The notes: generated from the letters alone by a model not told the origin. Positions 223 through 24,233 are shown, numbered from the stretch's first letter. The stretch is 35,897 nt of DNA from an uncultured bacterium (GCA_964471275.1 CAYYGZ010000012.1:1-35897), one strand, 5' to 3'. Numbers and translations are program-made.

Positions 223-387
223 TGTAACGATGTCCGACTTCCGTATGAGATCTGTAACACTTTGTAACACCGGTCGACACGGATCATAAATCGACAGGTG
301 GCATTCTCCTCGTTCTGACTCAAAAATAGATCATCACGAGGTCGATGTCTGTTGCGGATTGGTTGAGGGATTGTAACCGACTGTAAC
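223..387 (-). promoter_or_regulatory. Tandem GTTACA-N4-GTTACA direct repeats, probable OmpR/PhoB-family regulator binding sites
   Basis: TGTAAC (+) at 223, 253, 263, 372 and 382; two pairs have exact 10-bp spacing; upstream of the minus-strand secreted-protein gene. Confidence 0.6.
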
Positions 388-1063: not shown

Positions 1064-1789
1064 CTACGTCAGCAGACGCTCGCGACGCTCCATCTTCCTC
1101 AACCCCAGATACAGCAGCAGTGCACCGAAAACGAATACACCCACCCGGTTGAACAGAACCGTGTCCTCCCAGAGCGTCAGATCGGCGTTCGAAGGCACGT
1201 TGAACGGGTTGAGAAACGGATCGTACATCGTCCCGGAGAGTGATGACGAGAACATCAGGGCCAGCAGCAGGCACCCGAGTGACAGCATCCCGGCCGCATT
1301 GCTACTTCTAACGGACACGGCAAAATAGAACGTCAGATTGGCGATCAAATAGGCAGGTACGGCAGCATTCAATCCGCCGAGCACAAACGGAAACTCGGCA
1401 AAGAGAAAGTAGGACAGAGTGCTCATCGCCAGCGCCGACACCACGAGGATCCCGTGCAGGGACGTCAATCGGACCATCCAGATCGCATAGTGAGACGATG
1501 CCGTGCTGAACAGCGTCTCCAAAGTGTCGCGATCCCGCTCGGAGGCGATAATGTCCATGCTCAGGTAGACCGCCAGCGCGGCCATCGGAACCTGTACCAA
1601 GGTGTTCAGAGCAGCCTCGACGCTGAACCCGTCGCTTGGCCGGAACGTCAGGATCGCGTAGAGGATCGCGTAGTAGCCAGCCACACCGAGGACGCCGAAG
1701 GTCAGCTTCCGGTGAAACACGATCTTCAGGCTCAGCGTGACGATCTCGACACCGCTGCGCCACAGGTCTCTGTAAGTCAGGCCGCCCAC
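1064..1789 (-). CDS. ABC-2 type transporter permease (about 6 TM)
   Basis: Hydrophobic segments and IASERDRDTLETLFST (E-x3-TLE-L cytoplasmic coupling motif of ABC-2 permeases). Likely GTG start at 1789 with AAGGGG RBS, overlapping the upstream gene end. Confidence 0.8.
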   Translation of the reverse strand: MGGLTYRDLWRSGVEIVTLSLKIVFHRKLTFGVLGVAGYYAILYAILTFRPSDGFSVEAALNTLVQVPMAALAVYLSMDIIASERDRDTLETLFSTASSHYAIWMVRLTSLHGILVVSALAMSTLSYFLFAEFPFVLGGLNAAVPAYLIANLTFYFAVSVRSSNAAGMLSLGCLLLALMFSSSLSGTMYDPFLNPFNVPSNADLTLWEDTVLFNRVGVFVFGALLLYLGLRKMERRERLLT

Positions 1790-4700
1790 GCCAACCCCTT
1801 CCGCAGCAGGCAAACGTAGGCATCTTCGAGGTTCGGTGAAGGGGATGTGGCATCGAGTCCGTCCGGACACAACTCGGCGATGAATCGGGCCCGGATGCCG
1901 CCCGGGGATCGGACGTGTGTGATCAGATCAAGCGACGACTCACGGCGCTGGAACTCTTCCTCGGGAATGAGCGCTTCCCACACACGACCGTCGGCAACGG
2001 ATCGCATCGCTTCGGGAGCGCCATTATAGAGTACTTGCCCACGGTTCAGCACGGCAAGCTGGTTGCAGCTTCCCGAGATATCCTCAACGATATGTGTCGA
2101 GAACAGCACCACCCGGTCCTGGCTCAGCTTGGAGAGCAGGTTTCGGAACCGGATCCGCTCGATCGGATCCAGACCGGCAGTCGGCTCGTCGACCACGATG
2201 ATCTGGGGTTGATGAAGCAGCGTCTGCGCGATTCCGACACGTTGTCGCATCCCGCCGGAGAAGGTCCCGATCTGATCATCGATACGGTCCAGCAGGTTGA
2301 CCTCTTCCAGAATCTCGTGAACACGTCTTGACCGCGCGGTCTCTTCCCGAAACCCTTCCAACAGGGCTCGATAGGTCAGATACTGACCCGCACTCAGATG
2401 ATTGTAGAGCCCGAAATGCTGAGGCAGGTAACCGATTAGCCCATTTGTGGATCTCAGATCCGACACATTCTGACCGTTCACGAGTACCGATCCGTAGCTG
2501 GGTTCGAGAACCTGACAAAGAATCCGCATCATCGTCGTCTTGCCCGCTCCGTTCGGACCCAGCAGACCGAACATCCCCTTCTCGATAGAAAGAGTCACAC
2601 CGGCAAGTGCCTGAAACGGTTCGGCCTGCACACCGATCAAGGGAACGGATGCGGCCCCCTTATAGACACCTCTCCGAAGCCATCGCAATCGACCCGTAAT
2701 CGTCTCCGGATCCACCTGCCCCTCCCGCACACGATCGGCCAGCTTGCGTGCCCCGAGTACGGCCAGGAAAAGCACAACGGAAGCGATCGTCACAGACAGT
2801 GTCTTCACCCGAACGTGGGTTGTCACAAAGAACCCGATTGGAAGCAGCAGTCGCCAGATGCGCTCAATCCGCAAGACCCGGGCTGACCCCGAGAAGGAGA
2901 GGCCGATCAGACACGACCCCAGATGACGCAGATAGGCCCACGTCAGCGCAAAGAGGACGAACAGCCACAGCGGGTCTTCCAGGTATGCGTGAAAGAACAG
3001 GATCAGGAGAAGAAGAGGTATCTTCCACTGCAAACTCAGCTTTGTCGTAACGGGGTCTTCGAGTTCACCCTCCAGCAGCCCGCTTCTGTCTGTCCGCCTG
3101 TCGAAGCGCGCCCATTCCCTGCGGAGCCTTCCCGGTCCTCCGTAGATTTTCGTCAACGTGCGAAGTTCCAGTCGGTCTACCGATCCGATCACCACGGCGC
3201 TCGCTTGACGGCTTCGATGGACACGCAGCCCGGCCCACACGATCGTCAGAAACACCAGCCAGAAGGGCAGTGCCACGAGCCCGGTCCAGAACCAGCTCGC
3301 GTATCTGGCGTCGATCCAGTAGCAGGCGGCCGCGGTCATCCCCGTGGCGAGGAGGATACCGATCACGCCGATCTCGAGCAGCCAGGCTTTGGTGCGATCC
3401 AGCCCAACATATGCGACCGGGATGAACAGCAGCGTCGACAGCATCGAAATCGTCAGCCCACCCAGAACCGTTATCGCGAACGGTGGCCAGATTTCAAAAT
3501 CGCCGCCCATCTCGAGCGACAGGGGAAGAACACCCAGAAGCGTAGTTGCCGACGTCATCAGGATTGGCCGCACACGCGACCTGCCCGCGACCAGGACGGC
3601 CCGAGGTCTGCGGAATCCACGCTCTGCTCGAAGCGAACCGACCGAATCGATCAGGATGATCCCGTTGTTCACGGCGATGCCGAGCAGTACGACAAATCCG
3701 AGAAGCGCCATCGGCCCGGCCTGCGAGGTGAGACCCGTCCCCGTCATAATCAGGGCCCAGCACGAGCCGACGACCGCCGTCGGTATCGTACCGAACACGA
3801 TCAACGGGGCGCTGAGCGATTCGAACAGCGAAGCCAGGATCATATAGATGAGCAGCGCGGCAATTGCCATCATCCAGTAGTAAACCGTGTCCGTCTGGGC
3901 AGAAACCAGCTCCACGGTCACACCGGCCGGGATCACCATATCCTGAACAACCGACCGAACCGTAGCTCGCGCACCATCCAGCAGAACCTGCGATTCGGAG
4001 ACATCCGTAGTGAATCGATACTGAACGGAAATTCGACGCGATTGATCCGTCCTAACGATCGTACTGCGTCCTTCATTCGTCCGGACCCGTGCCAGCTCAT
4101 CGAGCGGCGTATACTGTCCACCCACTGTCCTGACAGGAACCTGGCGCAGACCGGCCAGACCCGGACCATCCGCCTCGGGGTCTTCGGTTGTCCGCAGATC
4201 GATCGGTGTTTCAGTGCCGTCGGGGTTCAGGAACGCGACCCGTGTCTGGAAGCCTTCTGGATTGGCCGCCTCAACCGCGTTCAGCACGTGTGTTGTTTCA
4301 AGCCGTCTGTCGAAGAGCGAGATCGCATCCGGGATGATCTCGACTTCGGGCGAGCTCCGTTCGACATCCGCGCGCACGCTGTTCGCGTCGATCTCCACCA
4401 TCTCCTCGAGCCGATAGGAGAGATCATCCGCGATCATTCGCAGAATCGTGAAGTCGTAACCACGAATCACCGCCTCCTCGGACGGTGCCCCGGTCTGCAG
4501 GCTGAACCCGCCGCCACCCCGTCCGCCGCGCCGCCCACCACCTCGACGCCCGCCGCCTCCCGTGATCGGAGCCTCGTAGGTCGCGACGCCTGCATTGAAA
4601 TCGTCCAGCTTCTCATCCAGCTTCGCTTTGATCTCCTCGAGCGACATCCCGTCCGGCCGTTCCCCGCGGTCCTTCAGCATCACGGTAACGCTTCCCAGCC

Positions 4701-6477
4701 CCTCATCGGCGCTCGCCGTAAACCGATTGACACCGGGAAGCTCCCTGACCATCGCCTCCACCTCTGTCACCGCCTCATCCGTGGCCTCGAGCGTGGTCCC
4801 CTCGGGAGTATCTACATAAACGGTGAACTGTGATTCTTCCTGAACGACCTGCTGCTGCAGCATGAAGAAGAAAGACAGGCTTAGCGTGACAAGAAAAACG
4901 AGACCGACACCGATCGAGAGACGGACCGGATGACGAAGACACGCCTTGAGCAGCAGGGTATACTGTTCGATCAATCGACCGGTTGCGAGGGGCGGTGGAG
5001 CGGCCGTGCTGAGTGTTCGGGACGCGAGTGCCGGTACGAGCAGCAGAGCCACAACCAGCGAGGCGAGAACGGGAAACGTGATCGAGAGGGCGAGCTCTGT
5101 CAGGATATCCTGAAAATCGCTCGTGATGAAGACTACGGGAAGGAAGACCACGACCGTCGTACCTGTGGCCGCCACTACGGCACGGCTCACATCTCGTGTA
5201 CCGGCTCTCGTAGCCTCTTCGGGAGACTTCCCCATCTCGAAATGCTTGAAGATGCTCTCCATCACGACAATGCTGTTATCCGCCAGCATCCCGATCGCAA
5301 GGGCAAGCCCACAGAGAGAGAGCACGTTTATCGATAGCCCGAAGGCGTAGAACAGGTTGAATGCCAGGAGAAGCGAGGTCGGAATCGCGAGCAACAGCAC
5401 GGCGACAAAACGGAGGGTGCGCAGAAACAGGAAGAGAACCACCAGACCCAGGAGGACACCCACCAGTGCGGCCTGCTTGAGCGTATTGAGGGCCTCGCCC
5501 ATCAGGTCGGCCTGACTGCTTGTCACGACGATCTCGATCCCGTCCGACGCGTAGACAGTGTTGAGTCGAGTGACTGCCTCTTCTATCCCTGCGGCAACAT
5601 CCAGCAGGTTCGCTTCGTCTTCCTTCTGAATCTGAACGGCAACCGAAGCCTTCCCGTTCACGCGACTGACATCCGTCCGCCGCTGAACGCCTGGGTAGAC
5701 ACGGGCCACATCGCCGATCGTCAGCGGGATCTCCGGCTTCAGGACAACGTCTCGGATTCCCGCGATGTCGGTGAATTGCGTCTGAACGCTCACGGGAAGG
5801 ACACGCGATCCGTCATAGATCATCCCGAGCGAAGCGCGCGGCCGATTGTAGCTCGAAAGCCGACCGTTGATGTCATTGAGCGTAAGTTCGTGCGCCTCCA
5901 TCACGATCGGATCCGCGATGATGGCGACGGACTTCTGTCTGCCGCCTTGCACACCCGCGTTCACCACACCGTCGACAGCCTCCAGCTCCGGGCGGATCTC
6001 GTTCTCGGCGAAATTCCGCAGCCAGTCAAGATCGGCTTCACCCAGGACCTGGAGCATCATAACGCGGGAACTGATGTCGGAAGTATCGAAACGCTGAACG
6101 ATGATGTTCGTGCGGGGGGGAAAGAGCGGCTGCAGCCGTGAGACACGCGACTGGATCTGAAGAAGCGCGAACTTCATGTCTGTATCCGGTGCATAGGACA
6201 CGCGGATCGTCGCGCGGTTGGCCATCGACGTGGAGGTCATCTCGACCACACCGTCGAGCTTCCCGATCTCACCTTCGATCGGAATAACGAGGTCCCGCTC
6301 GACCTGCTCCGGACTCGTACCTCGAAGCTGAACAGCCACAAAAACCTCCGGATAGATCACCTCCGGAAGCAGCTCGACCGGCAGTCGGTCGACCGAGATC
6401 AGCCCCAGCAAACTGAGCGCCGCGAACAGCATCGCCATCGTTACCGGCCGCTTTATGGGGAGATCCGATATACGCAC
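1777..6477 (-). CDS. RND efflux permease (AcrB/AcrD/AcrF family) fused to C-terminal ABC ATPase domain, about 1566 aa
   Basis: RND motifs IKRPV, LPVELLP, GMLADNSIVV, GIAVNNGIIL and RVRPILMT, then Walker A GPNGAGKTT, Q-loop GYLPQ, signature FSGGMRQR, Walker B IIVVDEP and H-loop STH in one uninterrupted frame. GTG start at 6477 after GGAG. Confidence 0.92.
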   Translation of the reverse strand: MRISDLPIKRPVTMAMLFAALSLLGLISVDRLPVELLPEVIYPEVFVAVQLRGTSPEQVERDLVIPIEGEIGKLDGVVEMTSTSMANRATIRVSYAPDTDMKFALLQIQSRVSRLQPLFPPRTNIIVQRFDTSDISSRVMMLQVLGEADLDWLRNFAENEIRPELEAVDGVVNAGVQGGRQKSVAIIADPIVMEAHELTLNDINGRLSSYNRPRASLGMIYDGSRVLPVSVQTQFTDIAGIRDVVLKPEIPLTIGDVARVYPGVQRRTDVSRVNGKASVAVQIQKEDEANLLDVAAGIEEAVTRLNTVYASDGIEIVVTSSQADLMGEALNTLKQAALVGVLLGLVVLFLFLRTLRFVAVLLLAIPTSLLLAFNLFYAFGLSINVLSLCGLALAIGMLADNSIVVMESIFKHFEMGKSPEEATRAGTRDVSRAVVAATGTTVVVFLPVVFITSDFQDILTELALSITFPVLASLVVALLLVPALASRTLSTAAPPPLATGRLIEQYTLLLKACLRHPVRLSIGVGLVFLVTLSLSFFFMLQQQVVQEESQFTVYVDTPEGTTLEATDEAVTEVEAMVRELPGVNRFTASADEGLGSVTVMLKDRGERPDGMSLEEIKAKLDEKLDDFNAGVATYEAPITGGGGRRGGGRRGGRGGGGFSLQTGAPSEEAVIRGYDFTILRMIADDLSYRLEEMVEIDANSVRADVERSSPEVEIIPDAISLFDRRLETTHVLNAVEAANPEGFQTRVAFLNPDGTETPIDLRTTEDPEADGPGLAGLRQVPVRTVGGQYTPLDELARVRTNEGRSTIVRTDQSRRISVQYRFTTDVSESQVLLDGARATVRSVVQDMVIPAGVTVELVSAQTDTVYYWMMAIAALLIYMILASLFESLSAPLIVFGTIPTAVVGSCWALIMTGTGLTSQAGPMALLGFVVLLGIAVNNGIILIDSVGSLRAERGFRRPRAVLVAGRSRVRPILMTSATTLLGVLPLSLEMGGDFEIWPPFAITVLGGLTISMLSTLLFIPVAYVGLDRTKAWLLEIGVIGILLATGMTAAACYWIDARYASWFWTGLVALPFWLVFLTIVWAGLRVHRSRQASAVVIGSVDRLELRTLTKIYGGPGRLRREWARFDRRTDRSGLLEGELEDPVTTKLSLQWKIPLLLLILFFHAYLEDPLWLFVLFALTWAYLRHLGSCLIGLSFSGSARVLRIERIWRLLLPIGFFVTTHVRVKTLSVTIASVVLFLAVLGARKLADRVREGQVDPETITGRLRWLRRGVYKGAASVPLIGVQAEPFQALAGVTLSIEKGMFGLLGPNGAGKTTMMRILCQVLEPSYGSVLVNGQNVSDLRSTNGLIGYLPQHFGLYNHLSAGQYLTYRALLEGFREETARSRRVHEILEEVNLLDRIDDQIGTFSGGMRQRVGIAQTLLHQPQIIVVDEPTAGLDPIERIRFRNLLSKLSQDRVVLFSTHIVEDISGSCNQLAVLNRGQVLYNGAPEAMRSVADGRVWEALIPEEEFQRRESSLDLITHVRSPGGIRARFIAELCPDGLDATSPSPNLEDAYVCLLRKGLAWAA

Positions 6478-6564
6478 TGATCCACTCCGTATACTTTTCC
6501 GCAGGCTGGAACGCCGCAAATTGGGGCACCGCAGGTTGGGACGCCACAGGCCGGAAGCCTGCGC

Positions 6565-9500
6565 CTATCTGGCTACCTCACGACTCACTGCCTTCACCCC
6601 CCTGAACCCATCCACCCATTCATACACCACCGGTATCACCACCAGCGTCATCAACGTCGATGACACCAGGCCCCCAATCACCGCGATCGCCATCGGGGCT
6701 CTCAACTTGCCACCCTCTCCCAGACCGATGGCCATCGGAAGGAGCGCCAGAATCGTGGTCGCACTGGTCATCAGAATCGGCCGCAGCCGATCCCGTGCAG
6801 CTTGCACGATCGCTTCCCGAACCGTCTGTGCCGTCTCCCGAAGCTGATTGATCCGATCCACGAGAACGATCGAATCGTTGACGGCGATCCCGCCAAGCAT
6901 GATCACACCGATAAAGGCGGTGATGCTTAAAGGTTCATTGAGAAGCCAGAAACCCAGGACGACCCCGACACCGGCAAGCGGCAGCGACAGCATCACCGTG
7001 AACGGATGCAGAAAGGACTCGAAAAGGGATGCCATCACCATATAGACAAGCACGATCGAAAGAATCAGCGCAAACTGCAGGCTGCCAAACGATTCGGCGC
7101 GATCTCGCTCTTCGCCGCCGAGCGACACCTGGTAACCGGGAGGCAGTTCGACCCCGGTCAGGATCGCCTGTAGCTGCCCGACAGCTTGCCCGAGCGTTGA
7201 CCCCTCGCTGACATAAGCGTTCACCCGGCCGATCCGCCTCTGTCGTTCACGGCGTATCTCTCGCGGGCCCTCGATGATCTGCGGATCGGCCACGTCGCCA
7301 ACCGTCAGGATGCTCCCATCGGGTGTATCGACGCGGATGCTCGAGAGCTCCGTCATATCCATCTCGCCAAAACCGACCCGGATCGTGCGCGCTCGCTGGC
7401 CCTCGGAATACTCGCCGACATCGTCACCGGACAGCCGACGCTTCAGATCACCGATCAGGTCATCCGGCGTCAGACCGAACGATGCAGCGACATCCAGACG
7501 CAGCGCGAGATCCAGCTCCGGCTGCCCGCCCTGAAAGCTGCTGCGGACATTGTATACGGCAGACGCGGCCGTCAGCCGCCCCGCGAGGTCATCGGTTAGC
7601 CTTCTGAGCGTTTCGAGGTCGTCACCTGAGATCTCGACAACGATCGGCGCGGACTGCGTCCCCATCACCGTCTCAAGCGGGCTCTCGTGCAGCTCGTACT
7701 CCACTTCGACATTCGCAAGATTACGCAGGTGCTCGTCGATCTCATTCACGATCTGGCCGACCCGACGTCGGTCTCCTTCCGACAGCAGAACCGACATCGT
7801 TCCCCGGTTCGGTCCCGTCGGCTCACCGACGTTCCACACCTGTGCGGGGTCCACACCGACACGTCCGTAGACGTGAGCGACATCGTCACCGCCGACCGAC
7901 TTCACGATGTCGTCGATCCGCTGTGCGACACCATCGGACAGCTCCAGTCTTGTGCCCTCGGGAAGCGCGAAAGCCACGTGGAAGATCCCCTGGTCCTCTC
8001 GCGGAATGAACGTCACGTCGATCGCGCGCCCCGTAACAAACGTCAGAGCCAGAACGCCCAGGACGGCAAGGAACACAATCCCCTTCCGGTCGAGTGCTGT
8101 GCCGAGCAGGTTCGCGAAAACCTTGTATCGTCCCTCCACAGATGGCGCGTGCTGTCGTCTGAGCACACGAGAAGCGATCATCGGCACGACGGAGAGAGCC
8201 ACGGCCAGCGAGGAGAGCAGCGAGAAGGCCACGGTCCAGGCCTGCTCCTTGAACAGCTCACCGGCCAGCCCGTGGAGATAAACGATCGGAAGAAACACCG
8301 AAACGGTCGTCAGCGTTGAGGCGAGGATCGCAGTACCCACCTCGCCGGCGCCTCTGGAAGCCGCCACAGACGCATCCTCACCGCGTTCGAGATGCCGGTA
8401 GATGTTCTCGATCACGACAATCGCGTTATCGACCAGCATCCCCGCGCCCAGGGCAAGTCCTCCGAGGGACATCACGTTCAGCGTAAGCCCCTCGAAATAC
8501 ATCAACGTGAACGTCGCCAGAACCGAGATCGGGATCGCGATACCGATCGTGGCCGTCACCGCCCAGCTGCGCAGGAACAGGAACAGCACGACGATCGCCA
8601 GGATGCCTCCGTAGATCGCCGCATCCTTCACTTCAGTCACCGCAAGCTCGATGAACCGCGCCTGGTTCTCCACTACGGTGAAGGTCACACCCGGCAGGTC
8701 AACACCAAGGTCATCTAGCGCGGATCGGGCCGTCGCCACGACGCTGACCGTGTTCGCGTCCGCCTCCTTGTGGATTGCGAGTCCGATACACTCGGTGCCG
8801 TCCAACCTCGAGATTGACTCCCGTTCCTCGTAAACCAGCTCGACCTGTCCCACGTCCGAAACACGTACGGGTACGCGGAGTTCACCGGCCACCGCGCCAC
8901 CGCCACGACGCTCCCCGACGATCAGATCGTGTATATCCTCCAGACTCCTGAGACGCCCCAATCCCTTGACCTGGTAAGAGCGCTTCGCATCCTTGAGCGT
9001 TCCGCCGGACACATCCAGGTTTGCCTGCCCGATCCGCTTGGCAATCGCCCCGGCATTCAACCCGAATGCCTCCAGGAGATACGGGTCCAGGGTCACGCGT
9101 GCTTCCTTCTCCGCGCCACCCTCGATCTCGGCGGATGCCACTCCTTCGAGCGCCTCGAGATTCGGTTTGATCGCCGTTTCGATCGTGCCGAGCAGATCGT
9201 CGATATCCATCGGTCCTCGAAGCTCCGCGTCAGCGTGTACGGCAACCCGCATCACCGGCAGCGCCTGGGGATCTTCCCGCGTCACATCGAGCGTCTCGAT
9301 CGCGTCATCCGCCCCGTAGAACGCCGTCTTCTTCTGAACATCCAGAAGCGCGAAATCCATATCCGCATCCCACGCGAACTCCGCAACCACCACCGATTGA
9401 GATGCGCGTGTCACCGAATAGACACGCTTCACCTTCGAGATCGTCTGCACATCCCGCTCCAGCCGGCGAGTATAGCGCTCCTCCATCTCCCACGGTGACT

Positions 9501-9660
9501 TACCCGGCGCCCGCAGATCCACCGAAATCACGGGCGTGTGGAGATCCGGAAGCAAATCCGTCCCCAACCGCTCGAGCGAGATATACCCGAGCAGGACAAC
9601 GGCCAACGCCGCCATCGAAATCGTGGTCGGAAACCGCGTTGAGAATTCAGGAATAGTCAT
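6565..9660 (-). CDS. RND efflux permease (AcrB/AcrD/AcrF family), 1031 aa
   Basis: Typical length; motifs LGTDLLPD, GMLVDNAIVV, GIAVNDSIVL, RLRPILMT and MAIAVIGGL. Confidence 0.95.
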   Translation of the reverse strand: MTIPEFSTRFPTTISMAALAVVLLGYISLERLGTDLLPDLHTPVISVDLRAPGKSPWEMEERYTRRLERDVQTISKVKRVYSVTRASQSVVVAEFAWDADMDFALLDVQKKTAFYGADDAIETLDVTREDPQALPVMRVAVHADAELRGPMDIDDLLGTIETAIKPNLEALEGVASAEIEGGAEKEARVTLDPYLLEAFGLNAGAIAKRIGQANLDVSGGTLKDAKRSYQVKGLGRLRSLEDIHDLIVGERRGGGAVAGELRVPVRVSDVGQVELVYEERESISRLDGTECIGLAIHKEADANTVSVVATARSALDDLGVDLPGVTFTVVENQARFIELAVTEVKDAAIYGGILAIVVLFLFLRSWAVTATIGIAIPISVLATFTLMYFEGLTLNVMSLGGLALGAGMLVDNAIVVIENIYRHLERGEDASVAASRGAGEVGTAILASTLTTVSVFLPIVYLHGLAGELFKEQAWTVAFSLLSSLAVALSVVPMIASRVLRRQHAPSVEGRYKVFANLLGTALDRKGIVFLAVLGVLALTFVTGRAIDVTFIPREDQGIFHVAFALPEGTRLELSDGVAQRIDDIVKSVGGDDVAHVYGRVGVDPAQVWNVGEPTGPNRGTMSVLLSEGDRRRVGQIVNEIDEHLRNLANVEVEYELHESPLETVMGTQSAPIVVEISGDDLETLRRLTDDLAGRLTAASAVYNVRSSFQGGQPELDLALRLDVAASFGLTPDDLIGDLKRRLSGDDVGEYSEGQRARTIRVGFGEMDMTELSSIRVDTPDGSILTVGDVADPQIIEGPREIRRERQRRIGRVNAYVSEGSTLGQAVGQLQAILTGVELPPGYQVSLGGEERDRAESFGSLQFALILSIVLVYMVMASLFESFLHPFTVMLSLPLAGVGVVLGFWLLNEPLSITAFIGVIMLGGIAVNDSIVLVDRINQLRETAQTVREAIVQAARDRLRPILMTSATTILALLPMAIGLGEGGKLRAPMAIAVIGGLVSSTLMTLVVIPVVYEWVDGFRGVKAVSREVAR

Positions 9661-9970: not shown

Positions 9971-11041
9971 CTACTTCCTCCCCGAAGACGTCACCCGCAC
10001 CCTTGTCCTCGACCGCAGCGTCTCGTAGTTACTCGTAATCAATCGATCACCTTCCTCGATCCCCTCAACAACCTCGATCGAATCCCGACTCTCCAGCCCG
10101 GTCTCCACCTGCCGCATCTGCGCCCGCGCGCTCTCCTCGACAAACACCACATCGTTCCCCTGCCGCTTGACGACCAATTTCTTCGGGACAACAACCACAT
10201 CGACGTGCGCGGACTTCACGATCTCGGCCCGCACAAACATCCCGGGTCGCAGCATCAGATCTGCATTACCCACGGTGGCCATCACGCGGAGTGTACGCGT
10301 CGCCGGGTCCAGAACCGGATCCACGGCCGTAATCTTCCCGTCGAAAACGCGATCGGTGAACGCGTAATTCGAAACACGCACCGGCTTCCCGAGTTCGATC
10401 GCCAGAACCTGTGAGTTCGGGATTCGCAGATCCACGAGCACCTGGCTGTAATCGACAACCTTCCCGATCACCGCATTCGCCTGGATCTCCGTTCCCTGCG
10501 TAATCTGGGTCACCTCGGTCATCACACCCGTGATCGGGGCCCTGACCTCGGTCTTCCGGACCTTGATACGGGCTTCCTCGTAACTTGTCTCCGCATCCGC
10601 CAGCGCCTTCCTCGCGTTGTTCACTTCGACTTCCGTCGTCAGCCCTCGTGCAAAGAGTGCTTCCTTCTCCTTCACCGTGTGTTGTGCGGTCTGACGCGAC
10701 AGCTTCCGCGAGGCGATATTCGCCCCCACGATCCACTCGTCATTCTCGATCCGCGCAACAACCTGCCCCTCCGTCACCGCAACCCCATCGGACAGACGAC
10801 CGATCCCCTCGACAGCAGTCAAGAACAGATCTCCTTTGACCTCGGTCAGGATCTCCGCCTCACGGATCGAGCGAAGTGTCCCCGTCGCTGTAAGGGTCGA
10901 CTCGATTGTCGACAGCGTGGCAGGTGAAACCGTCACAGGAACCGTAAGATCGACACTCCGTTCCTCGGTGGGCCTGCTGCACGCCGCGGACAGAACGACA
11001 AGCACGAGTACACAACGAATGCTGGGGAAACCTGTTCTCAC
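9971..11041 (-). CDS. RND efflux periplasmic adaptor subunit (membrane fusion protein), lipoprotein
   Basis: Likely GTG start overlapping the upstream TGA. Lipobox-like LSAAC; MFP motifs VRAPITG, DPATRT, LRPGMF and GIEEGDRLI. Confidence 0.92.
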   Translation of the reverse strand: MRTGFPSIRCVLVLVVLSAACSRPTEERSVDLTVPVTVSPATLSTIESTLTATGTLRSIREAEILTEVKGDLFLTAVEGIGRLSDGVAVTEGQVVARIENDEWIVGANIASRKLSRQTAQHTVKEKEALFARGLTTEVEVNNARKALADAETSYEEARIKVRKTEVRAPITGVMTEVTQITQGTEIQANAVIGKVVDYSQVLVDLRIPNSQVLAIELGKPVRVSNYAFTDRVFDGKITAVDPVLDPATRTLRVMATVGNADLMLRPGMFVRAEIVKSAHVDVVVVPKKLVVKRQGNDVVFVEESARAQMRQVETGLESRDSIEVVEGIEEGDRLITSNYETLRSRTRVRVTSSGRK

Positions 11042-14000
11042 CTTCTCCCTCCTCCTCTGCCAAAGCCACCTTGACGACCGCCGGGTCCTCCCCTTCCACC
11101 GAAGTTCCACGCGGGGATATCTTCTTCATACACCAGATCCGGATTGTCCGGATCCACAAAACGCCAGCGAATCGCGTCGGCGTAAAGCCGGCCATCCGCA
11201 TCGTCTGACATCTCAACCGTCGCAGCCACCTGTCCGCTGAACGAGAAGCGGCCGAGTAGATTCCAGCCTCCCTTCAGATGCTCACTCTCGATCTGCAAAG
11301 TGTCGACACCCCCACCGTGAGTGACCCGCAGTTCAAACGATTTACTCAACCGAAGTCGCCGTCTCATCTGTTGCGGCGGGTAGTAGTATGCCACGTCATA
11401 CTCACCGTCCTGCGGAATGCGTGCACGCCACACGGCCGGTTGTGCGCCGTCACCCGGCCGCTTCCACCGAAAATTCGTCTCATATCGGCCGTATGCCATC
11501 GGCAGTTCGCGTATGATCCAGTTCCCGCCCTTCAGCTGTGGACGCAGATACTTGGTGACCCGGCGGACAGGCATCGAGAACCCTTCATCTTCGTTGTCGA
11601 CCACAACTTCCGCCAACCGGGAGTCGTCATCCTCAACGGGTCTGACGTAGGATCGCGGGTTCCCGCTGACAACCTGCTCGGGAATACTCAGGGGGGCCAT
11701 CATCGGTCGCCGATTTCTCGCAAAGAACGGATCGACGGTCACGCGGGTGGGCCGGTCCCAGAGAATCAGCCCGACCTCGACTTCCGTCCCCCCTTCGATC
11801 TCGACACCCTTGACGGCCTCATCCTCCCGGCTCGCCACCGTTACCTGGACAAAGCCACGTCCCGGCTCGGCATTACGCACGCGCACCGTGACCTGGTAGA
11901 CGACCGCCCCCCACCCGTCATCCATCTTGCGCGCCGTCGCTTTTGTGAGCGTGTAACCGGGCACGTGCGTCGAGTAGATCCACTCGTTCACGAGTCGCTC
12001 GAGTGTCTCCTTCCGGTCCTCACGGCGTGTCCCCTCAGCGAACGCGGTCTCGAAGTCCTCAAAGGGCACGTCGGTATAGCGACTTCGGACGCCAATCTCT
12101 TCCATCGTCGAAAGAAAGGCCTCATCACCCACCACAGATTCCACCATACGGAACATCGTCGGGCCTTTCGCATTCAGAGCCCGGCGATACAGATCTGGTT
12201 CGGCTTCGGGATTCAGATCGGCAAATGAGCGCTGCCCCATCTCCGTCATCAACGTATCCCAGGCGGCCGACTCATTCTGCCGTGGCCGTCTCCCTCGGCG
12301 CCCCTTGCCACGGCCCCGCCTGCCCCATCGCGAGCTCGTGGACTCACGCAACGCCGTTTCCACATCCTGCTGCAAAAACAGCGGAAGACCTCGCTCGACA
12401 AGCGCAGACTGCTCACCGGAGAAGGACCGGTCAAACGACCAGAGCTGGACGATCGGACTTCGGAACAGTCCACCTCGGCCGCCTTCCTTGCTGAAGAATG
12501 TCTCCAGCACCGCTGATACGAGCAGATCGCGTTTCACCTGCGCGGGATCCTGGTCGCCACCACGGCTGAACCGTTTCCGACGTTCCAGATCGGTCCTGAA
12601 CCGCTTGCGCAGCAGGACATCCTCTTCCACCATCAGCACACCCGGCTGAACCAGCCCCCCACGCTCCTCCCAACCATCGTAATACCATTGGATCTGAAAG
12701 GGCACCTCGACAACGGAGAGTCTTGGGAACGGGTAGGGCAACCCCGTCTCCTGTTCCATCACATCGATAATCTGATCAAGCGCCCCAAGCGCAGGCTCCT
12801 CTGCATCCTTAAAAAATTCGACCAGTCGGAGATGTGTGCGATGGATATACAACGCCAGATCCACCCCATGGACGTTCGCCTCGAACACCTCGTAGTGACC
12901 GGCATTCAGCGAAAAGGCCGGAACAGCCGACTCGACACCCCACACCGACGTGACACGCCCCTCGGACGCTGACGTATCACGGACTGCGCCCTGTGTGACG
13001 ACCGTCAGATCCTCGGGGATGCTGATCGTCACCTCCGCCGTTGCGTAGTCCGGGTCGACCTCCGCTCTGTAATCGGGTCCCGGTGTTGGATACCACCTGC
13101 TGCGTGGAGGCAGAAAGACAGACCGGGGCGTAATCCACGCCGTCATATCACCCATGTAGAAGGGATGGCGGTTCTTCTTGAGCCGCGCGTCTGTCTGCGT
13201 CAGATCGAAGGCGTCCACATCGACGATCCCGGCATAGGCAACGGTCACCGCCACACTGTCTCCTGACGGAATCGAGAGTGGGATCCGGACCAGGGCCTGG
13301 GTTCGTTCGTGCGGCACGGTCACACCCCCTGCGCTAACCTCAGAAACCGCGAGACCCGCATTCAGACTCAGCAGAAGGGAATCGACGCCCACAGGTTCCG
13401 TATTCGTAAGATTCAGCGTCACCCTCGCCGACAACGGAACGCCCTGGTTCATCAAGTCGAGGGACATCGTGTAGTGGGTCACACGAGGTACGGGGCGGTC
13501 CGCCAGGGACTGGTGTTCTGCCAACAGATCTGCGCGAAACGAAACCGCGTTCGTTTCGAGACGTTCGGAATAGGCATAGACCGTTGCCGATCCGGCGATT
13601 CCGACTACCGCCATTACCCTCCCGATCCACATCCAGCTCGCCGACTGGGCCAGTCGGGGGTACCGGTTGATCGACAGGCCGAGCAGCCCAAACGCCAGGA
13701 TCACATACATCAGACGCTGACGGATCACGTCAGAGACATCACCAATGCCCAACAGGTCGGAGTAGAAAATCGGCGCGAAGAAAGCCCCGAAATCGAACAC
13801 ACCATCGTAGCGTTCGCCCAGAAACATGACGACAGCGATGGTATAGGCGCCGACCGTCAGGGCGACAGCGGTCTGCTTCCTCAGCACAGCGCCCAGCACG
13901 AAGGTCAGGGCTGAGACGAAAACGAGTGAGGGCAGTGCCATCAGCGTCAGATAGATCAGATAGGGTTCCAGCGTGAACGGCACACCCGTGATGCTGATCT

Positions 14001-14518: not shown

Positions 14519-15403
14519 CTACTCCTCTTCCAACAAACGCCCCAACCGCAGCACGTATGCATCCTCCAGGTTCGGGTCTACCGATCGAGCTCCCTCCGGG
14601 GGCTCTTCTGATCCGACGAAACGAACATCCATCTCGTTCCCCTCGTTGCTCACATTGACCACCTGAAATCGCTCCGACAACGACATAAATGCCCGATCAT
14701 TCACACGCGCTTCCCAGACACTGCCTTCCGCCGACCGAACAAACGCTTCGGGCCTCCCCGTAAACACCAGCTGCCGCGGCGCCAGCACGGCGATCTCCTC
14801 ACACGTGCTGGAGATATCCCCCACGATGTGGGTGGAGATCAGAATCGCCCGATCCGTACTCAGTCTCCCAAGTATGGCCCGAAAACGAATCCGTTCCTCC
14901 GGATCCAGACCGACTGTCGGTTCATCCACAACCAGAAAATCCGGGTCCGCCAGGATGGCCTGCGCGATCCCCAGTCGTCTCATCATACCCCCGGAGAAAG
15001 TACCAGATCGTCGGTCGCGGACCTCCGTAAGCCCCACGTCTTCCAACGCTCTGGCTACGCATTCACGACGTTCAGCGCGCTTCCGGATTCCGGCCAGTCT
15101 CGCCCGGTAGTCCAGGAACTCACCCGCCGTGAGCTGCGGGTAGGATCCGAAGTGCTGTGGGAGATACCCAAGACGTCGGCGAACCGCTTCGCGCTCGGTC
15201 ACCAGGTCGTGACCCTCGATCAGGACCCGCCCGGACGTAGGCAACATCTGCGTAGCCAGGATGCGAATCAGGGTCGTCTTGCCTGCACCGTTCGGACCCA
15301 GCAGCCCAAAAGTGCCCCGCCCGATCTCGAGAGTCAGATCCTCGAGCGCTGGCGGGGCATCTCTGCTGTAGGCCTTCGTCAGATGTTCAATCTGAATGGC
15401 CAT
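14519..15403 (-). CDS. ABC transporter ATP-binding protein (ABC-2 exporter type)
   Basis: IQIEHLTKAY, Walker A GPNGAGKTT, FSGGMMRR, LVVDEPTVGLDP, STH and C-terminal PNLEDAY. Confidence 0.95.
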   Translation of the reverse strand: MAIQIEHLTKAYSRDAPPALEDLTLEIGRGTFGLLGPNGAGKTTLIRILATQMLPTSGRVLIEGHDLVTEREAVRRRLGYLPQHFGSYPQLTAGEFLDYRARLAGIRKRAERRECVARALEDVGLTEVRDRRSGTFSGGMMRRLGIAQAILADPDFLVVDEPTVGLDPEERIRFRAILGRLSTDRAILISTHIVGDISSTCEEIAVLAPRQLVFTGRPEAFVRSAEGSVWEARVNDRAFMSLSERFQVVNVSNEGNEMDVRFVGSEEPPEGARSVDPNLEDAYVLRLGRLLEEE

Positions 15404-15422: not shown

Positions 15423-15869
15423 CTACCGCCCGCCGCCACCGCCACGGTTTCCACGACCGCCAGCACCCCCTCGACCACCCCGGGTGGCCTGACGCTGCAT
15501 ATGCTTCTTGAGTCGGTCGACCTGCGCCTCGTTCAGCACGCTGGACACAGCCGCCAGCAGCTTACCCCGGAGCCCCATCATATCTTCACGGATATCTTGG
15601 AAATCGCGCTCTCCGCTTCGGACACTCCGCATCAGGTCCTGCTGCTTCTGGTGTACGGGCTTGAGCGCCAGTCTCAGCCCGACGAGCTGGTCATCCGTCA
15701 GATTCGACTCTGTATCGAAAGCCAGCATACCCAGAATCTGGCTGGCATTCACGTTCCCACCGCCGCGCCGGCCGCCGCGTCCCCCGCCACCGGGCTGGGC
15801 AACAGCTGCCTCGAACGTGAAACCAACCGTCAACCCGGTGAGCAGCACAGCTATAAAAAAACGCCTCAT
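15423..15869 (-). CDS. Secreted Spy/CpxP-like (LTxxQ) helical protein with Gly/Arg-rich tails
   Basis: GGAGGT RBS; signal peptide ending AVA-Q; NLTDDQ and VLNEAQ motifs bracket a helical core. Confidence 0.7.
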   Translation of the reverse strand: MRRFFIAVLLTGLTVGFTFEAAVAQPGGGGRGGRRGGGNVNASQILGMLAFDTESNLTDDQLVGLRLALKPVHQKQQDLMRSVRSGERDFQDIREDMMGLRGKLLAAVSSVLNEAQVDRLKKHMQRQATRGGRGGAGGRGNRGGGGGR

Positions 15870-16320: not shown

Positions 16321-16476
16321 ATGTCCAAGAAAGAGTTCGTCGCACCCACAGACACGGGGAACATGCCAAGGATGCAGGCCTTCAAAGATGCAGGCTACAA
16401 CGCGGATGGGATCGAATACATCTGGCAGGGCGAGCTGGCCCTCACCTCCCCGAAACACGATGCAGAAGTCCGATGA
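16321..16476 (+). pseudogene. Possible C-terminal remnant of a GNAT acetyltransferase
   Basis: PTDTGNMPRMQAFKDAGY resembles the GNAT C-terminal TDxxNxPMxxxFxxxGY motif; N-terminal part absent; ATGA-coupled to the next gene. Confidence 0.3.
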
Positions 16477-17945
16477 CCCTCCACATTCACCCCGACAATC
16501 CCAAGCTCTTTGAGTACAACGGGCGGCCACTCGTGCTGCTGTGCGCCACCGAGCACTACGGCGCCGTGCTCAATCGGCCATTCCGTTTCGAGCAATACCT
16601 CGAGGACGCCGCGAGCAAAGGTCAGACGCTGACGCGGCTCTTCACCCTGTTCCGTGAGCTCCAGTCGCCCCTCAATCCCTATTCGACCTGCAAGCCCGAG
16701 TCAACGGACTTCGTCACGCCCTTCCAGCGTGGTGGTCCCGGCAAGGCCCTGGATGGCTTACCCCGCTTCGACCTGACGCAATGGAACGACGAGTATTTCG
16801 ATCGCCTGGATGCGTTCGTCAAGCTTGCCGGAGACTACGGGATCGTCGTCGAGGTCGTCCTGTTCTCCAACACCTACGCCGATGACGTCTGGCAACTGAA
16901 TCCCCTGCACCCGGACAACAACGTCAACCTGGACGCTGCCCATTCGCTGAGCTGGCAAGACTACGTCACCGAGCGCAATGCCGAAGTGCTGCACTGGCAG
17001 GAGGCCCACGCCCGCCGCATCGTCGAACACACCCAGCAGTATGAAAACGTCATCTATGAAATCTGCAACGAACCCGGTTCATTCAGGACAGATGCCGACC
17101 TGCCCGGAGCCGACGAGGTCAACGCCTGGCAGTCCCGGATGATCGATCTGGTGCGCGGTATCCAGCGTGAGAGCGGCCGCCGGCACCTGATTGCCGGCCA
17201 GCAGGCGTTTTTCTACGACCCCGAGTTCGAGCAGCCTGCGGACCTCACCTTCGATGCGCTCGACTTTGACGTCGTGAACATGCACCCCTTGCCCAACACC
17301 AGCTTCCGCGGGCGCAGCTACGACATGGGTGCCTTCATGTCCAAGCAACTCAAACTCGCTGCAGTACGCGACTTCGTCCTGGCGTCATACGAAACCCCCA
17401 AGCCCCTGAACTACGATGAGGACAACGTCGCCACCCGCTTTCTCGATCCCGAGGGCTGGACCGTTCACCGCAAGCGGGCGTGGACGACGGTCCTGAGCGG
17501 CGCCCACTACGACATGATCGATTTCTCCATCATCCCCGGTCGGGAGACGGGAACGTCCGAGTCCAGCCGCTGCATCCGCACCTGGATGGGTCACCTGTCA
17601 CAGTTCATCCATTCGGTGGACCTCGTGCGAGGCCGCCCGCTGCCGATCAATTGGCTCCTCCAGCAGCCTGAGCACACGATTGCTTCCGTGCTGGCCCTGG
17701 AAGGAGAGGACTACTGTATCTACCTCGCGGACGACCGGGAACGTGAGGAGGCAGACTGCGGAGAACCGATCGAGGGTGTCCTGGAAATGGTGCTGCCAGA
17801 CGGAGACTTCACCGTCAGCACGTATGCTCCCAGTACCGGCCTCTATTCGCCGGCTTTGCCCATGAGGGGAGGGACAAGCGTGCTCGATCTCCCCGTATTC
17901 CGCCACGACGTCGTCATCCGTATCCAACGTGCTACGGCATCCTGA
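16473..17945 (+). CDS. Clan GH-A (GH5/cellulase-like) TIM-barrel glycoside hydrolase with C-terminal beta domain
   Basis: FDLTQWNDEYFDRL, YEICNEP acid/base motif, PLNYDE candidate nucleophile; no signal peptide. Confidence 0.7.
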   Translation: MTLHIHPDNPKLFEYNGRPLVLLCATEHYGAVLNRPFRFEQYLEDAASKGQTLTRLFTLFRELQSPLNPYSTCKPESTDFVTPFQRGGPGKALDGLPRFDLTQWNDEYFDRLDAFVKLAGDYGIVVEVVLFSNTYADDVWQLNPLHPDNNVNLDAAHSLSWQDYVTERNAEVLHWQEAHARRIVEHTQQYENVIYEICNEPGSFRTDADLPGADEVNAWQSRMIDLVRGIQRESGRRHLIAGQQAFFYDPEFEQPADLTFDALDFDVVNMHPLPNTSFRGRSYDMGAFMSKQLKLAAVRDFVLASYETPKPLNYDEDNVATRFLDPEGWTVHRKRAWTTVLSGAHYDMIDFSIIPGRETGTSESSRCIRTWMGHLSQFIHSVDLVRGRPLPINWLLQQPEHTIASVLALEGEDYCIYLADDREREEADCGEPIEGVLEMVLPDGDFTVSTYAPSTGLYSPALPMRGGTSVLDLPVFRHDVVIRIQRATAS

Positions 17946-17964
17946 CAACACCTTCGGAGAGCCA

Positions 17965-18783
17965 ATGAAAACCGAGCTGCAGGCCAAACAGATCGAGCAC
18001 TACCAAAGTGAGGGATGGCTCATCGTCGAAGACTTCCTGTCCGCAGACGAGTTGGAATCCATAAACACGGCCGTGGACGAAGGAGCGGCCGTCATGGGCG
18101 GCGACAAAGTGAGCGGTGAGCATAACGAAGAGATCATTGACCGCCCGGACACCCACTACAATCAGGTCTTCTTCCAGCGCGCCAACCTCTGGCGCGTAAA
18201 CGACACCATCAAGGGATTCTTCCTCAACCCCGAGTTGGGGAGGATGCTCTGCCGCCTCGCAGGCATCGACGGTATCCGGGTCTGGCACGACCAGACCCTA
18301 CAGAAGCCGCCCTGGGGCAACCCCACTTCATGGCACATGGACGTGCCCAACTGGTCGTTCCACTCCCGCGATTCCATCTCCATGTGGATCGCGCTCAACG
18401 ATGCGACGATCCAGAACGGCTGCATGTACTACATGCCGCGATCGCACCGGGCTGGCGATTTCGAACGCAAGAGTGGTTTCAATCCGAACGTAGGGGCATT
18501 TTTCGATGAGTATCTGGAGTTCCGCGACGTCGAACCGGTGGCCGTCGAGATGAAGGCGGGATCTGTCGGCTTTCACAACAGCCTCATGGCACACGCGGCC
18601 GGGGCTAACATGAAGCCCCATCCCCGCCGAGCCATGACCTGCGCCTACAGGCCGGACGGCGCGACCTTCAACGGCATCCAGAACATCCTCTCCAAGGAGC
18701 GCTTCGAAAGCCTCAAGATCGGCGACGTCCTCGACGACGATGAGCAGACACCTCTCGTCTGGTCATCGCGTATGGCCGATTGA
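17965..18783 (+). CDS. Phytanoyl-CoA dioxygenase (PhyH) family Fe(II)/2-oxoglutarate oxygenase
   Basis: WHMD (HxD), WIALNDATIQNGCM..PRSH, distal HAAG and RRA. ATG at 17965 after GGAGAG. Confidence 0.9.
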   Translation: MKTELQAKQIEHYQSEGWLIVEDFLSADELESINTAVDEGAAVMGGDKVSGEHNEEIIDRPDTHYNQVFFQRANLWRVNDTIKGFFLNPELGRMLCRLAGIDGIRVWHDQTLQKPPWGNPTSWHMDVPNWSFHSRDSISMWIALNDATIQNGCMYYMPRSHRAGDFERKSGFNPNVGAFFDEYLEFRDVEPVAVEMKAGSVGFHNSLMAHAAGANMKPHPRRAMTCAYRPDGATFNGIQNILSKERFESLKIGDVLDDDEQTPLVWSSRMAD

Positions 18784-18842
18784 GGCAGTCAGCGTCATCC
18801 CACGCCGACACCCCACACACTATTCAGCAAAGAGGAAGAGAC

Positions 18843-19886
18843 ATGTCCCAAGGAGCGGTACCGACCGGTCCGGCGGCATACATTGACGGCAGACCCGTAG
18901 CGGAATTGAGGCTGGACGCCGATGACGCCGGCAGAGTGTTCGAGCACGGACGGGGTCCGGATCGCTGCGACGCAATGGGCGCGCGGGAGGCAAGTGTCGT
19001 CCTGCACGACGGAATCTATCATCTCTTCTACGACGGTGCGGAACCCGACGTGGGCTGGCTGGCTTGTCTGGCAACGAGCAGCGATCTCCAGGACTGGCAG
19101 CGGCACGGTAGCGTTTTCAGCTACGGCGAGGCGGGCAAGCGCGATTCCCATACGGCGACCTCTCCGTGGTTCATCAGGCACGATGGGCTCTGGCACGCCT
19201 ACTATGTCGGCTGCACAAGGACCACGGATCCACCGGACTGCGTACCGGACGTTCCTTACTACACGCTGAAGGCAGAGGCCGAGGATCTGAAAGGCCCGTG
19301 GCGCAAGCGCTACGATGTGGACGTTGTGTCGACGGAGCCCAACACGTATCATAGCGATACGGCAAGTCCCGGCTACCTGTTCTGGTTTCAAGGGAAGCTC
19401 TGGACGTTCTTTACGTGTGCAGAGAACGTGAAGCGACCAGACGGGAGGGTGATCCACACGAGATCCCTGGGCATGGCCCACGCACCGCACCCGGATGGTC
19501 CCTGGACCGTTTTGGACGAGTCCGTCCTGCCCCAGGAAGAACAGATCGAGAACAGCTCACTCTACCACGAGGCGTCAAACGGCTGGTGGTTCCTGTTTAC
19601 CAACCACGTAGGCATTGATGAAACCTGGGACGAATGGACCGACGCCATCTGGGTCTATTGGTCTAAGGATCCAACGAGATGGGACCCAGGGAACAAGGCG
19701 GTCGTTCTTGATGGCCGGAACTGCACCTGGTCGCAACAGTGCATGGGTATGCCCTCTGTGATCAAGGTTGGTGAGCGCCTGGCCATCTTCTATGATGCTC
19801 CGGGTGGCAATCGTACAGACCATATGGAGCGGGACATAGGCTTGGCTTGGCTGGACCTGCCCCTGTCTCCACCCGGCAGAGATTAG
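18843..19886 (+). CDS. Five-bladed beta-propeller glycoside hydrolase-like protein (GH43/32/130-like)
   Basis: Repeated blade motifs YHLFYDG, LATSSDLQDW, PDGPW, IENSSL and IGLAW. ATG at 18843 after GAGG. Confidence 0.7.
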   Translation: MSQGAVPTGPAAYIDGRPVAELRLDADDAGRVFEHGRGPDRCDAMGAREASVVLHDGIYHLFYDGAEPDVGWLACLATSSDLQDWQRHGSVFSYGEAGKRDSHTATSPWFIRHDGLWHAYYVGCTRTTDPPDCVPDVPYYTLKAEAEDLKGPWRKRYDVDVVSTEPNTYHSDTASPGYLFWFQGKLWTFFTCAENVKRPDGRVIHTRSLGMAHAPHPDGPWTVLDESVLPQEEQIENSSLYHEASNGWWFLFTNHVGIDETWDEWTDAIWVYWSKDPTRWDPGNKAVVLDGRNCTWSQQCMGMPSVIKVGERLAIFYDAPGGNRTDHMERDIGLAWLDLPLSPPGRD

Positions 19887-20009
19887 GACCGAAGTAGAAG
19901 TTCCAATGTGCAGGCTTGTGGCTATCATTTCTCGGCCCACAACGGTCTCCTCTTCCGTGAGCAACCGAATCGCCCCAGCACAAAGCTGACACCCTCGATT
20001 CTCTCGGAG

Positions 20010-20101
20010 CCTGCCCTGAGCTTGTCGAAGGGTCCCCCGCTTATGCGGGGACAGGCCTCTGCGTCCTCCCTGGCCCGCCGTAGCCCGAAGGGCGAAGGGG
20101 G
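20010..20101. repeat. Cluster of three different REP-like palindromes
   Basis: CCTGCCCTGAGCTTGTCGAAGGG, TCCCCCGCTTATGCGGGGAC and GCCCGCCGTAGCCCGAAGGGCGAAGGGGG lie close together in one spacer. Confidence 0.6.
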
Positions 20102-20126
20102 CTGCGGTGAAAGGTCTTCGAAGCCC

Positions 20127-21329: not shown

Positions 21330-21343
21330 CGCCTGTTGCGGCC

Positions 21344-21379
21344 GTCATACCCGCGTATGCGGGCATCCAGGATCTGGAT
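21344..21379 (+). repeat. REP-like palindrome GTCATACCCGCGTATGCGGGCATCCAG
   Basis: CCCGC-GTAT-GCGGG stem plus ATCCAG/CTGGAT hairpin just after a stop codon. Confidence 0.6.
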
Positions 21380-21546
21380 ATAAAAGAAGCTGGGTTCCCA
21401 TTCCCTGATGCAGGATCACAGTCCCACACGTATTGATCAGACTGCCCCCTGGCACCAATACCATACCGATCTCTACCGGGTCGACGCCCTGTCGCCCAAC
21501 CCGTTGGCGACAACCAGCTTCCGCAAGAGAAAGGGATACGACGACT

Positions 21547-24126: not shown

Positions 24127-24233
24127 TTCTGGGGCAGAACACCAAGGTTTGGGGATCACCATTGACACTGGTACACATCCAGCAGCGAAGATCGAAAAGA
24201 CCACAATGCCATTGACACAGGAGGTCCGAACCG

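Follow-up and report, generated by a model that had tools for sequence, protein, structure and literature searches.

A conserved RND permease fused to an ABC ATPase domain that is interrupted by transmembrane helices

How an ABC-type nucleotide-binding domain (NBD) can be divided by a membrane-spanning stretch, and what such a stretch would do in a protein that is also an RND permease, are questions raised by one gene in a 35,897-nucleotide stretch of DNA from an uncultured bacterium (GCA_964471275.1 CAYYGZ010000012.1:1-35897; the whole stretch is hereafter referred to as the window). An initial annotation, made from the sequence alone, had proposed that an ABC ATPase domain is split here by an insertion of 177 residues. 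All parts of this arrangement are found in one 1580-residue frame, and an AlphaFold model agrees with it. The analysis confirms a conserved bacterial protein that consists of an AcrB-type RND permease, a transmembrane (TM) hairpin, and an intact ABC ATPase interrupted after the A-loop Tyr. Its parts are as follows.

1777–6519, minus strand: RND-NBD fusion, one stop-free frame of 1580 residues from the first TTG
3403–6468, minus strand: complete RND permease domain (Pfam ACR_tran, residues 18–1039), with ADNSIVV in TM4, AVNNGII in TM10, and RVRPILMT kept
3196–3399, minus strand: extra TM hairpin hp1, between the RND domain and NBD strand 1
3142–3174, minus strand: NBD β-strand 1, RLELRTLTKIY, ending in the A-loop Tyr1126 (3142–3144)
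2611–3141, minus strand: 177-residue insertion (from translation and model)
1780–2616, minus strand: rest of the NBD, from strand 2 to the C-terminal domain (from motifs, Pfam and model)
Minus strand, NBD motifs: Walker A 2536–2559; Q-loop 2419–2430; FSGGM 2248–2262; Walker B VVDE from 2196; H-loop 2092–2100

The split ATPase domain

Residues are numbered in the 1580-residue frame; the database form (P0001) has 1566 residues and starts at a GTG at 6477. In the fusion, residues 18–1039 match positions 2–1019 of the 1021 positions of ACR_tran (E 7e-180) and residues 1307–1448 match ABC_tran from profile position 3 onwards, with no Pfam family between the two. LELRTLTKIY (residues 1117–1126, positions 3171–3142) lies 177 residues from ALAGVTLSIEKGMFGLLGPNGAGKTT (ALAGV), which starts at residue 1304 (position 2610). 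In the free ABC ATPase of the same window the translation, MAIQIEHLTKAY-SRDAPP-ALEDL, reads through this site with just six residues, the short linker that had been noted there. The insertion does follow the A-loop Tyr directly, as annotated, but its length was slightly off: strand 2 begins two residues before the AL, and the structural insertion is about 175 residues. The fused NBD of the window protein contains GPNGAGKT, YLPQ, FSGGM, VVDE with the catalytic Glu, and STH, and would, as far as its sequence tells, be an active ABC ATPase.

A model of residues 1040–1580 (541 residues), computed with AlphaFold from an alignment of 106 sequences, has a pLDDT of 92.5 and a pTM of 0.80. It contains, in order, a helical hairpin (residues 1041–1108), a strand (1116–1126), an amphipathic helix (1131–1145), the four long hydrophobic helices of the insertion (1156–79, 1183–1208, 1213–38 and 1241–65), a second amphipathic helix (1279–91), and strand 2 from residue 1302. 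Model residues 76–470 superpose on LptB residues 2–228 (222 of 230 residues, RMSD 1.9, Z 28.3), and 77–466 match MJ0796 residues 1–232; structural alignments to free NBDs begin at model residues 74–77, against residues 1–3 of the free NBDs, and a wider structure search without Foldseek (48,161 chains) gave the same placing of strand 1 in the NBD. LELRTLTKIY, for which a structure model had been proposed as a check, sits in the NBD sheet, superposed on strand 1 of free NBDs. According to the model, strand 1 completes the NBD and Tyr1126 occupies the A-loop position.

Modelled alone, the insertion forms the same helices (pLDDT 91.3, pTM 0.64). Foldseek found 0 matches to this model among solved structures at E ≤ 0.001. 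A wide VIA search gave a best Z of 9.3 (RMSD 3.5, 102 residues aligned), among unrelated helical bundles, and the sequence of the insertion has no Pfam or NCBIfam match and no usable ESM Atlas match; none of this proves novelty or absence.

Conservation and topology of the insertion

Residues 1050–1330 gave 1268 matches at E ≤ 0.001 among 8000 candidates, and each of the 120 matches listed has Pfam domains of both RND and ABC proteins or is a truncated fusion. A search for a split NBD standing alone, without an RND domain, gave one match among 8000 candidates, which starts inside an RND end; this search missed known shorter relatives and thus speaks neither for nor against such a form. The family comes from Gemmatimonadota, Latescibacterota, Acidobacteriota, KSB1, Calditrichaeota, Bacteroidota, Krumholzibacteria, and one Pseudomonadales MAG, under generic database names. 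Matches occur in 70 of the 132 genomes of the window's own class and in 26 of its 34 high-quality ones, counts in which related genomes are not independent. A single-protein scan of named genomes gave no match, and an alignment-based scan of genomes was swamped by ordinary ATPases.

I compared 385 proteins, most of which had been found using the 1050–1330 region or its NBD as query, a choice that favours such matches. In 263 of these an RND end is followed by a Walker A motif, with a long linker in 232 and a short one in 31. The A-loop aromatic residue is present in all 232 long fusions (Tyr in 229, Phe in 3). Strand 1 was located by a regular expression in 226 of the 232; two cases were misplaced and six missed, and all eight have K-x-Y on inspection. 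In the set below 60% identity, the strand 1 motif is kept in homologues (K in 79 of 79, Y in 77 of 79), an outcome that supports the initial annotation on this point. The catalytic motifs are similarly intact among 224 long fusions: Walker A, signature and H-loop in 224 each, the Q-loop in 223, and hhDEP in 221.

These observations leave a negligible probability that the arrangement is an artefact, whether from a chance LxKxY motif or from a chimera produced by assembly or frameshift. The modelled strand completes the NBD, the aromatic residue is never lost in the long fusions, and no internal stop occurs in any listed match from the class genomes. A second sample of the study that may be the source yielded an identical contig (2155–3462, 0 differences, 0 gaps), and since it spans the region unchanged the split frame is not an assembly artefact. 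One contig in one run has a joint skipping 2556–4507, but with 24 letters on its short side at 90% likeness. The runs that hold at least half of the sampled words are, with one exception, marine or seawater metagenomes; one RNA run yields an identical 237-base contig inside the insertion, although contigs do not demonstrate transcription.

Within the insertion, the following elements are distinguished.

3085–3129, minus strand: AH1, an amphipathic basic helix directly after the A-loop, at the gate-helix position (hydrophobic moment 0.86, mean net charge +3.6)
2896–3054, minus strand: hp2, a TM hairpin (2983–3054 and 2896–2973) that resembles hp1 (from the model)
2725–2883, minus strand: hp3, a TM hairpin (2806–2883 and 2725–2799; from the model)
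2620–2697, minus strand: AH2, an amphipathic basic helix with a P-x-I-G motif (from model and alignment)

The two amphipathic elements are conserved in the set below 60% identity (in AH1, W in 71 and R in 65 of 79; in AH2-P-x-x-G, G in 70, P in 64 and G in 63 of 79). The insertion TM helices have few conserved residues beyond Trp and Pro, and insertion length ranges from ∼160 to 260 residues across the long fusions. TM counts rest on hydropathy and the model. The annotation had given about four hydrophobic helices in the insertion and two further TM segments before strand 1, numbers that the model reproduces. By crude hydropathy, two segments precede strand 1 in 213 of 226 long fusions. For the insertion this count is not uniform: no more than 162 of the 226 have four segments, while 45 have three, 8 have five, 8 have two, and 3 have fewer. 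An even count had been said to leave both NBD pieces cytoplasmic. The charge pattern agrees with this positive-inside arrangement (0.2–1.2 K/R in each of the three short outer loops and 5–14 in the inner loops, over 79 sequences below 60% identity), as does the variant P0367, whose 113-residue insertion has two TM segments: by eye, one whole hairpin (hp2) is lost and the count stays even, in a form represented by one cluster only. The charge pattern is what six added TM helices with both NBD pieces in the cytoplasm would give. P0367 also has an acidic expansion in the periplasmic part of its RND domain.

The origin of the insertion was addressed by comparing hairpin profiles. hp1 and hp2 align with an hhalign probability of 69% and a score of 19.6 over 31 columns, against maxima of 12.5 for column shuffles (0 of 60 as high) and 12.8 for 18 pairings with RND hairpins, and 9.5 for a reversed profile; for scale, the RND domain's own TM5-6/TM11-12 repeat scores 20.9. 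For hp3, which a triplication would have to include, the score is 10.4, with 1 of 60 shuffles as high and one RND control hairpin reaching 12.8. Judged by profile similarity, part of the insertion, namely hp2, is probably a duplicate of the hairpin that precedes strand 1.

The gene block and the short-loop fusions

The fusion belongs to a block in which the free ATPase comes first, followed by a large ABC-2/M1-like/Golvesin protein, an adaptor, an RND permease, the RND-NBD fusion itself and a small ABC-2 permease.

14519–15403, minus strand: free ABC ATPase, 294 residues, 48% identical to the fused NBD, with a short strand 1–strand 2 loop
11038–14403, minus strand: large ABC-2-like permease with an M1-peptidase-like region (no HExxH) and a Golvesin C domain; presumed start at 14403
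9971–11110, minus strand: periplasmic adaptor (RND MFP; TIGR01730 above cut-off)
6565–9660, minus strand: partner RND permease, 1031 residues
1064–1789, minus strand: small ABC-2-type permease, ∼240 residues; presumed start at a GTG at 1789, overlapping the fusion stop (ABC-2 Pfam matches below cut-off, including a weak PF12679 at E 0.004)

The last five genes keep this order in 16 of 16 class loci, picked from the 70 matching genomes for long contigs and spread, and also in four Bacteroidota loci and one Pseudomonadales locus (L002–L005, L014); in L007, L011 and L012 the block starts with the free ATPase. For the large permease (∼1120 residues) no NCBIfam family was found, and it is likely the cargo- or signal-binding part of the machine. 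The window's block contains no outer-membrane factor (one weak match is on another contig, beside another RND gene) and, by Pfam, no glycan-synthesis gene. A 500-residue gene that precedes the adaptor in the Bacteroidota loci, and a gene of 520–560 residues in the short-loop genomes described below, are presumably outer-membrane factors. No sigma-70 promoter match was found on the operon strand.

Several other features were noted around the block. Just upstream of the free ATPase, a 148-residue ORF (15423–15869, minus strand; no NCBIfam family) has a signal-peptide-like start and Gly/Arg-rich ends and is single-copy in the genome; Gly/Arg-rich stretches are also present in the periplasmic part of the fused RND domain and at the end of the large permease. 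Five GTTACA hexamers, two pairs of them 10 bp apart, occur within 165 bp (223–387, minus strand) upstream of a secreted-looking ORF starting near 131. The hexamer occurs 9 times in the whole window, against 5.1 expected, and I take its spacing to suggest response-regulator direct repeats. In L002, a tandem repeat of ∼17 codons per unit (222–844) lies between the large permease and the next gene. The plus-strand genes at 16473–35559 (sulfatases, a GH5/apiosidase-like gene, an apiosidase-like gene, a BNR protein, a sugar isomerase and a PhyH-like dioxygenase) apparently serve ordinary carbohydrate and sulfate-ester catabolism, unrelated to the pump block.

In the short fusions, one of which comes from Ca. 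Omnitrophota, the strand 1–strand 2 loop is 27–57 residues long, without a hydrophobic segment in 26 of the 27 located (P0367 is the other one), and 21 of the 27 located have no hairpin before strand 1. Inspected by eye, this loop begins with Tyr, followed by residues that look helical; some members have I-P...I-G-x-R-P before strand 2, resembling the end of the long insertion. Free relatives have 4–5 residues at the site (20 of 25 located). Two short-loop genomes, G132 (L121, C30) and G133 (L122, C5), have this gene set in a different order, namely an adaptor, an ATPase, a small permease, an RND permease, an ABC-2/M1-like protein, the RND-NBD fusion and the 520–560-residue gene already mentioned, with an adaptor frame that is longer in L121 and L122 (506–554 residues from stop to stop). 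Two NBDs and two ABC-2-like permeases are thus encoded in each of the window, G132 and G133. The idea that the TM insertion goes together with the small permease was discarded, since G132 and G133 carry a small permease too, upstream.

In trees of the NBD, fused domains separate from free ones (support 99/95), P0367 is placed among the long forms, and 11 of 15 short forms fall outside a clade that contains long ones (83/89), with 4 inside. The long forms make up a single clade in 0% of bootstrap trees; AU tests reject neither a single long clade (p 0.42) nor a single short one (p 0.40), so that these trees are compatible with a gain as well as a loss of the helices. Because the short-loop group does without them, the four TM helices look, from these sequence comparisons, like an add-on to the fusion, and would not be needed for the core cycle. 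The insertion likewise appears dispensable for the fusion, because short-loop fusions occur in operons with the same gene set.

Proposed mechanism and alternatives

The term type V ABC transporter is used here in the sense defined in the available text of PMC8386196. When the C-terminal 541 residues of the fusion were predicted together with the small permease, three runs gave a complex score of 0.70, whereas the highest of three controls had 0.00. The threshold for a complex is reached by 116 of 157 solved complexes and by 2 of 215 mismatched pairs. The runs agree in at least 90% of contacts, with a partner pLDDT of at least 76. The confident part of the predicted interface brings the Q-loop groove, the helical subdomain and Tyr1126-Gly1127 (model 87–88) against permease residues 84–95 and its N-terminal helix (5–23). 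The TM helices of the insertion are absent from the confident contacts with the small permease, where residues not named are uncertain, not excluded. This interface resembles the usual type V docking, and the score may stem from likeness to solved type V NBD-TMD complexes. On this model, the ABC-2 permease encoded next door is predicted to be the membrane domain that the fused NBD engages.

The reading that I give an even chance as a whole is that the protein contributes one half of a type V exporter, a heterodimer linked to an RND pump of two paralogues, and that the insertion is a membrane-embedded, enlarged form of the loop that makes the gate helix in Wzt. The fused NBD and the small permease would form one half of the heterodimeric (ABC-2) exporter, the free ATPase would, by elimination, dock on the large ABC-2/M1-like permease, and the fusion would connect the exporter with the pump that the two RND paralogues and the adaptor form. 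The insertion would be an enlarged strand 1–strand 2 loop, in which an amphipathic helix at the Wzt gate-helix position is followed by two TM hairpins and by another amphipathic helix. It may enter the bilayer beside the ABC permeases, hold the ABC module close to the RND within the membrane, move with the RecA-like subdomain upon ATP binding, and help gate an amphipathic or lipid-linked cargo or pass it to the RND. Computation shows the split NBD fold and its catalytic motifs, the conservation of the protein, the recurring gene set, the sister group with short loops, and a predicted docking of NBD and permease; beyond this, I infer the pairing of the second half, the position of the insertion at a lateral gate, its ATP-driven movement, the cargo hand-over and the nature of the cargo.

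The comparison with Wzt is drawn from the available parts of PMC6379404, which describe its gate helix as basic, placed between strands 1 and 2 of the NBD directly behind the adenine-stacking Tyr, and lying at the water-lipid interface and at the permease interface, where it moves about 8 Å upon ATP binding. In Wzt (WzmWzt) and TarH (TarGH), as in the fusion, a basic helical extension follows the A-loop Tyr directly and the partner, for the fusion by prediction, is an ABC-2 permease (PMC6379404; PMC11041684, in the parts available, where KpsT is described as being without a gate helix). Wzt however has a short helix, whereas the fusion has four TM helices and a second amphipathic helix, an NBD placed behind an RND domain, and two different permeases. 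Wzt and TarH are not among the matches listed in the sequence, family and fold searches, which does not exclude homology, and the likeness is positional, since the best NCBIfam scores of the fused NBD are GldA/DrrA-like, all below cut-off. By analogy, the fusion may work like a gate-helix NBD, with no family membership implied.

What the insertion does in the long fusions is a matter of whether it anchors the NBD or couples nucleotide binding to the membrane domain, both of which had been suggested from the sequence and may apply. A purely passive role, in which the six extra TM helices serve only to hold the NBD to the membrane at a given distance from the RND, a hairpin having been duplicated into a tolerant loop with no gating, seems to me rather unlikely, even if much speaks for it: hp2 resembles hp1, the TM surfaces are poorly conserved, insertion length varies widely, short-loop and two-TM forms exist, and loops at this site can be dispensable, as the available text of PMC5065228 describes for the CFTR regulatory insertion. 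Against a mere spacer, the RND domain and hp1 already anchor the NBD, AH1 and AH2-P-x-x-G are conserved where the TM surfaces are not, and the short forms retain their loop of 27–57 residues instead of the few residues of free ATPases. A sensory function is very improbable: the ABC module and a non-catalytic M1-like periplasmic domain would sense peptide or the envelope state and switch the RND on, with the insertion as a sensor of the bilayer or a binding site for an additional membrane partner. The loss of HExxH from the M1-like region suits binding over cutting and both insertion ends are basic and amphipathic, but no regulator gene was found in the conserved block, where only the window's own operon proteins were looked for.

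The RND domain bears on a more active alternative, that the insertion lies against the TM domain of the RND and transmits closure of the NBD to the RND cycle, with ATP replacing or supplementing the proton-motive force. Covalent fusion would suit such a lever. In AcrB, D407, D408 and K940 are essential (according to the available text of PMC8277102), and the fused RND domain has DN in TM4 in 202 of 202 long fusions and never Lys in TM10 (VNN in 186); the D408 and K940 equivalents are thus replaced, and they are likewise missing from the partner RND (26 of 26). However, the equivalents of D407 and R971 are retained in the fused RND, an ABC permease is predicted as the partner of the NBD, and the same DN/VNN pattern is present in three other, unfused RNDs of the genome (C44, C169, C195), on contigs without a close copy of this ATPase. 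The pattern is therefore a subfamily trait, not linked to the fusion, and the loss of D408 and K940 is unsupported as a sign of powering by ATP. I regard direct driving of the RND by ATP as improbable, and retain the heterodimeric exporter tied to the RND pump as the working model.

The remaining parts have known counterparts. MdtABC-type HAE-1 pumps, like this block, have an adaptor followed by two tandem RND genes, and MdtB is the second-best PDB sequence match of the fused RND (E 1e-68); MdtBC heterotrimers are known (PMC8277102, available text). MdtB and MdtC however have no NBD or extra TM helices, the D408 and K940 equivalents are present in MdtB and absent from the fused RND, and the NCBIfam scores of the latter are far below the MdtB and MdtC cut-offs (272 vs 1584 and 305 vs 1774 bits). 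The best structural match of the fused NBD is with DrrA/GldA/NosF-like ABC-2 ATPases (TM_1403, 4YER; Z 29.8 over 268 residues, including the C-terminal domain), which, unlike it, are free subunits with a short strand 1–strand 2 loop. The CFTR NBD1 regulatory insertion and the loop of ABCG2/G5/G8 are at the same site of the fold, A-loop included, but in the available text of PMC5065228 these are soluble and mobile, ∼20–40 residues in ABCG, and none is described as membrane-spanning. A literature search over titles and abstract openings, with few subscription papers, found no description of a membrane-spanning NBD insert or of an RND-NBD fusion.

The protein is real and conserved; its parts are of known kinds, and together they may make up a machine of a new type. 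In the usual view, ABC NBDs are soluble motors that touch the membrane via coupling helices only, and RND and ABC pumps are alternatives with different energy sources; here both pump types are on one polypeptide, and membrane helices emerge from the ATP-site loop. More tentatively, the family could represent a hybrid exporter class that has not been described, one covalent machine made of a type V ABC transporter and of an RND pump from a subfamily without half of the AcrB proton relay, where a membrane lever at the adenine-stacking residue turns ATP binding into gating, into cargo hand-over to the RND, or into RND motion. The natural series of loops, from 4–6 residues in free ATPases through 27–57 in short fusions to two TM helices in P0367 and four in the long forms, allows a direct test of the role of the strand 1–strand 2 loop, which is unsettled for the gate helix of Wzt and the regulatory insertion of CFTR as well, and of whether an RND pump can be fed or driven by ATP.
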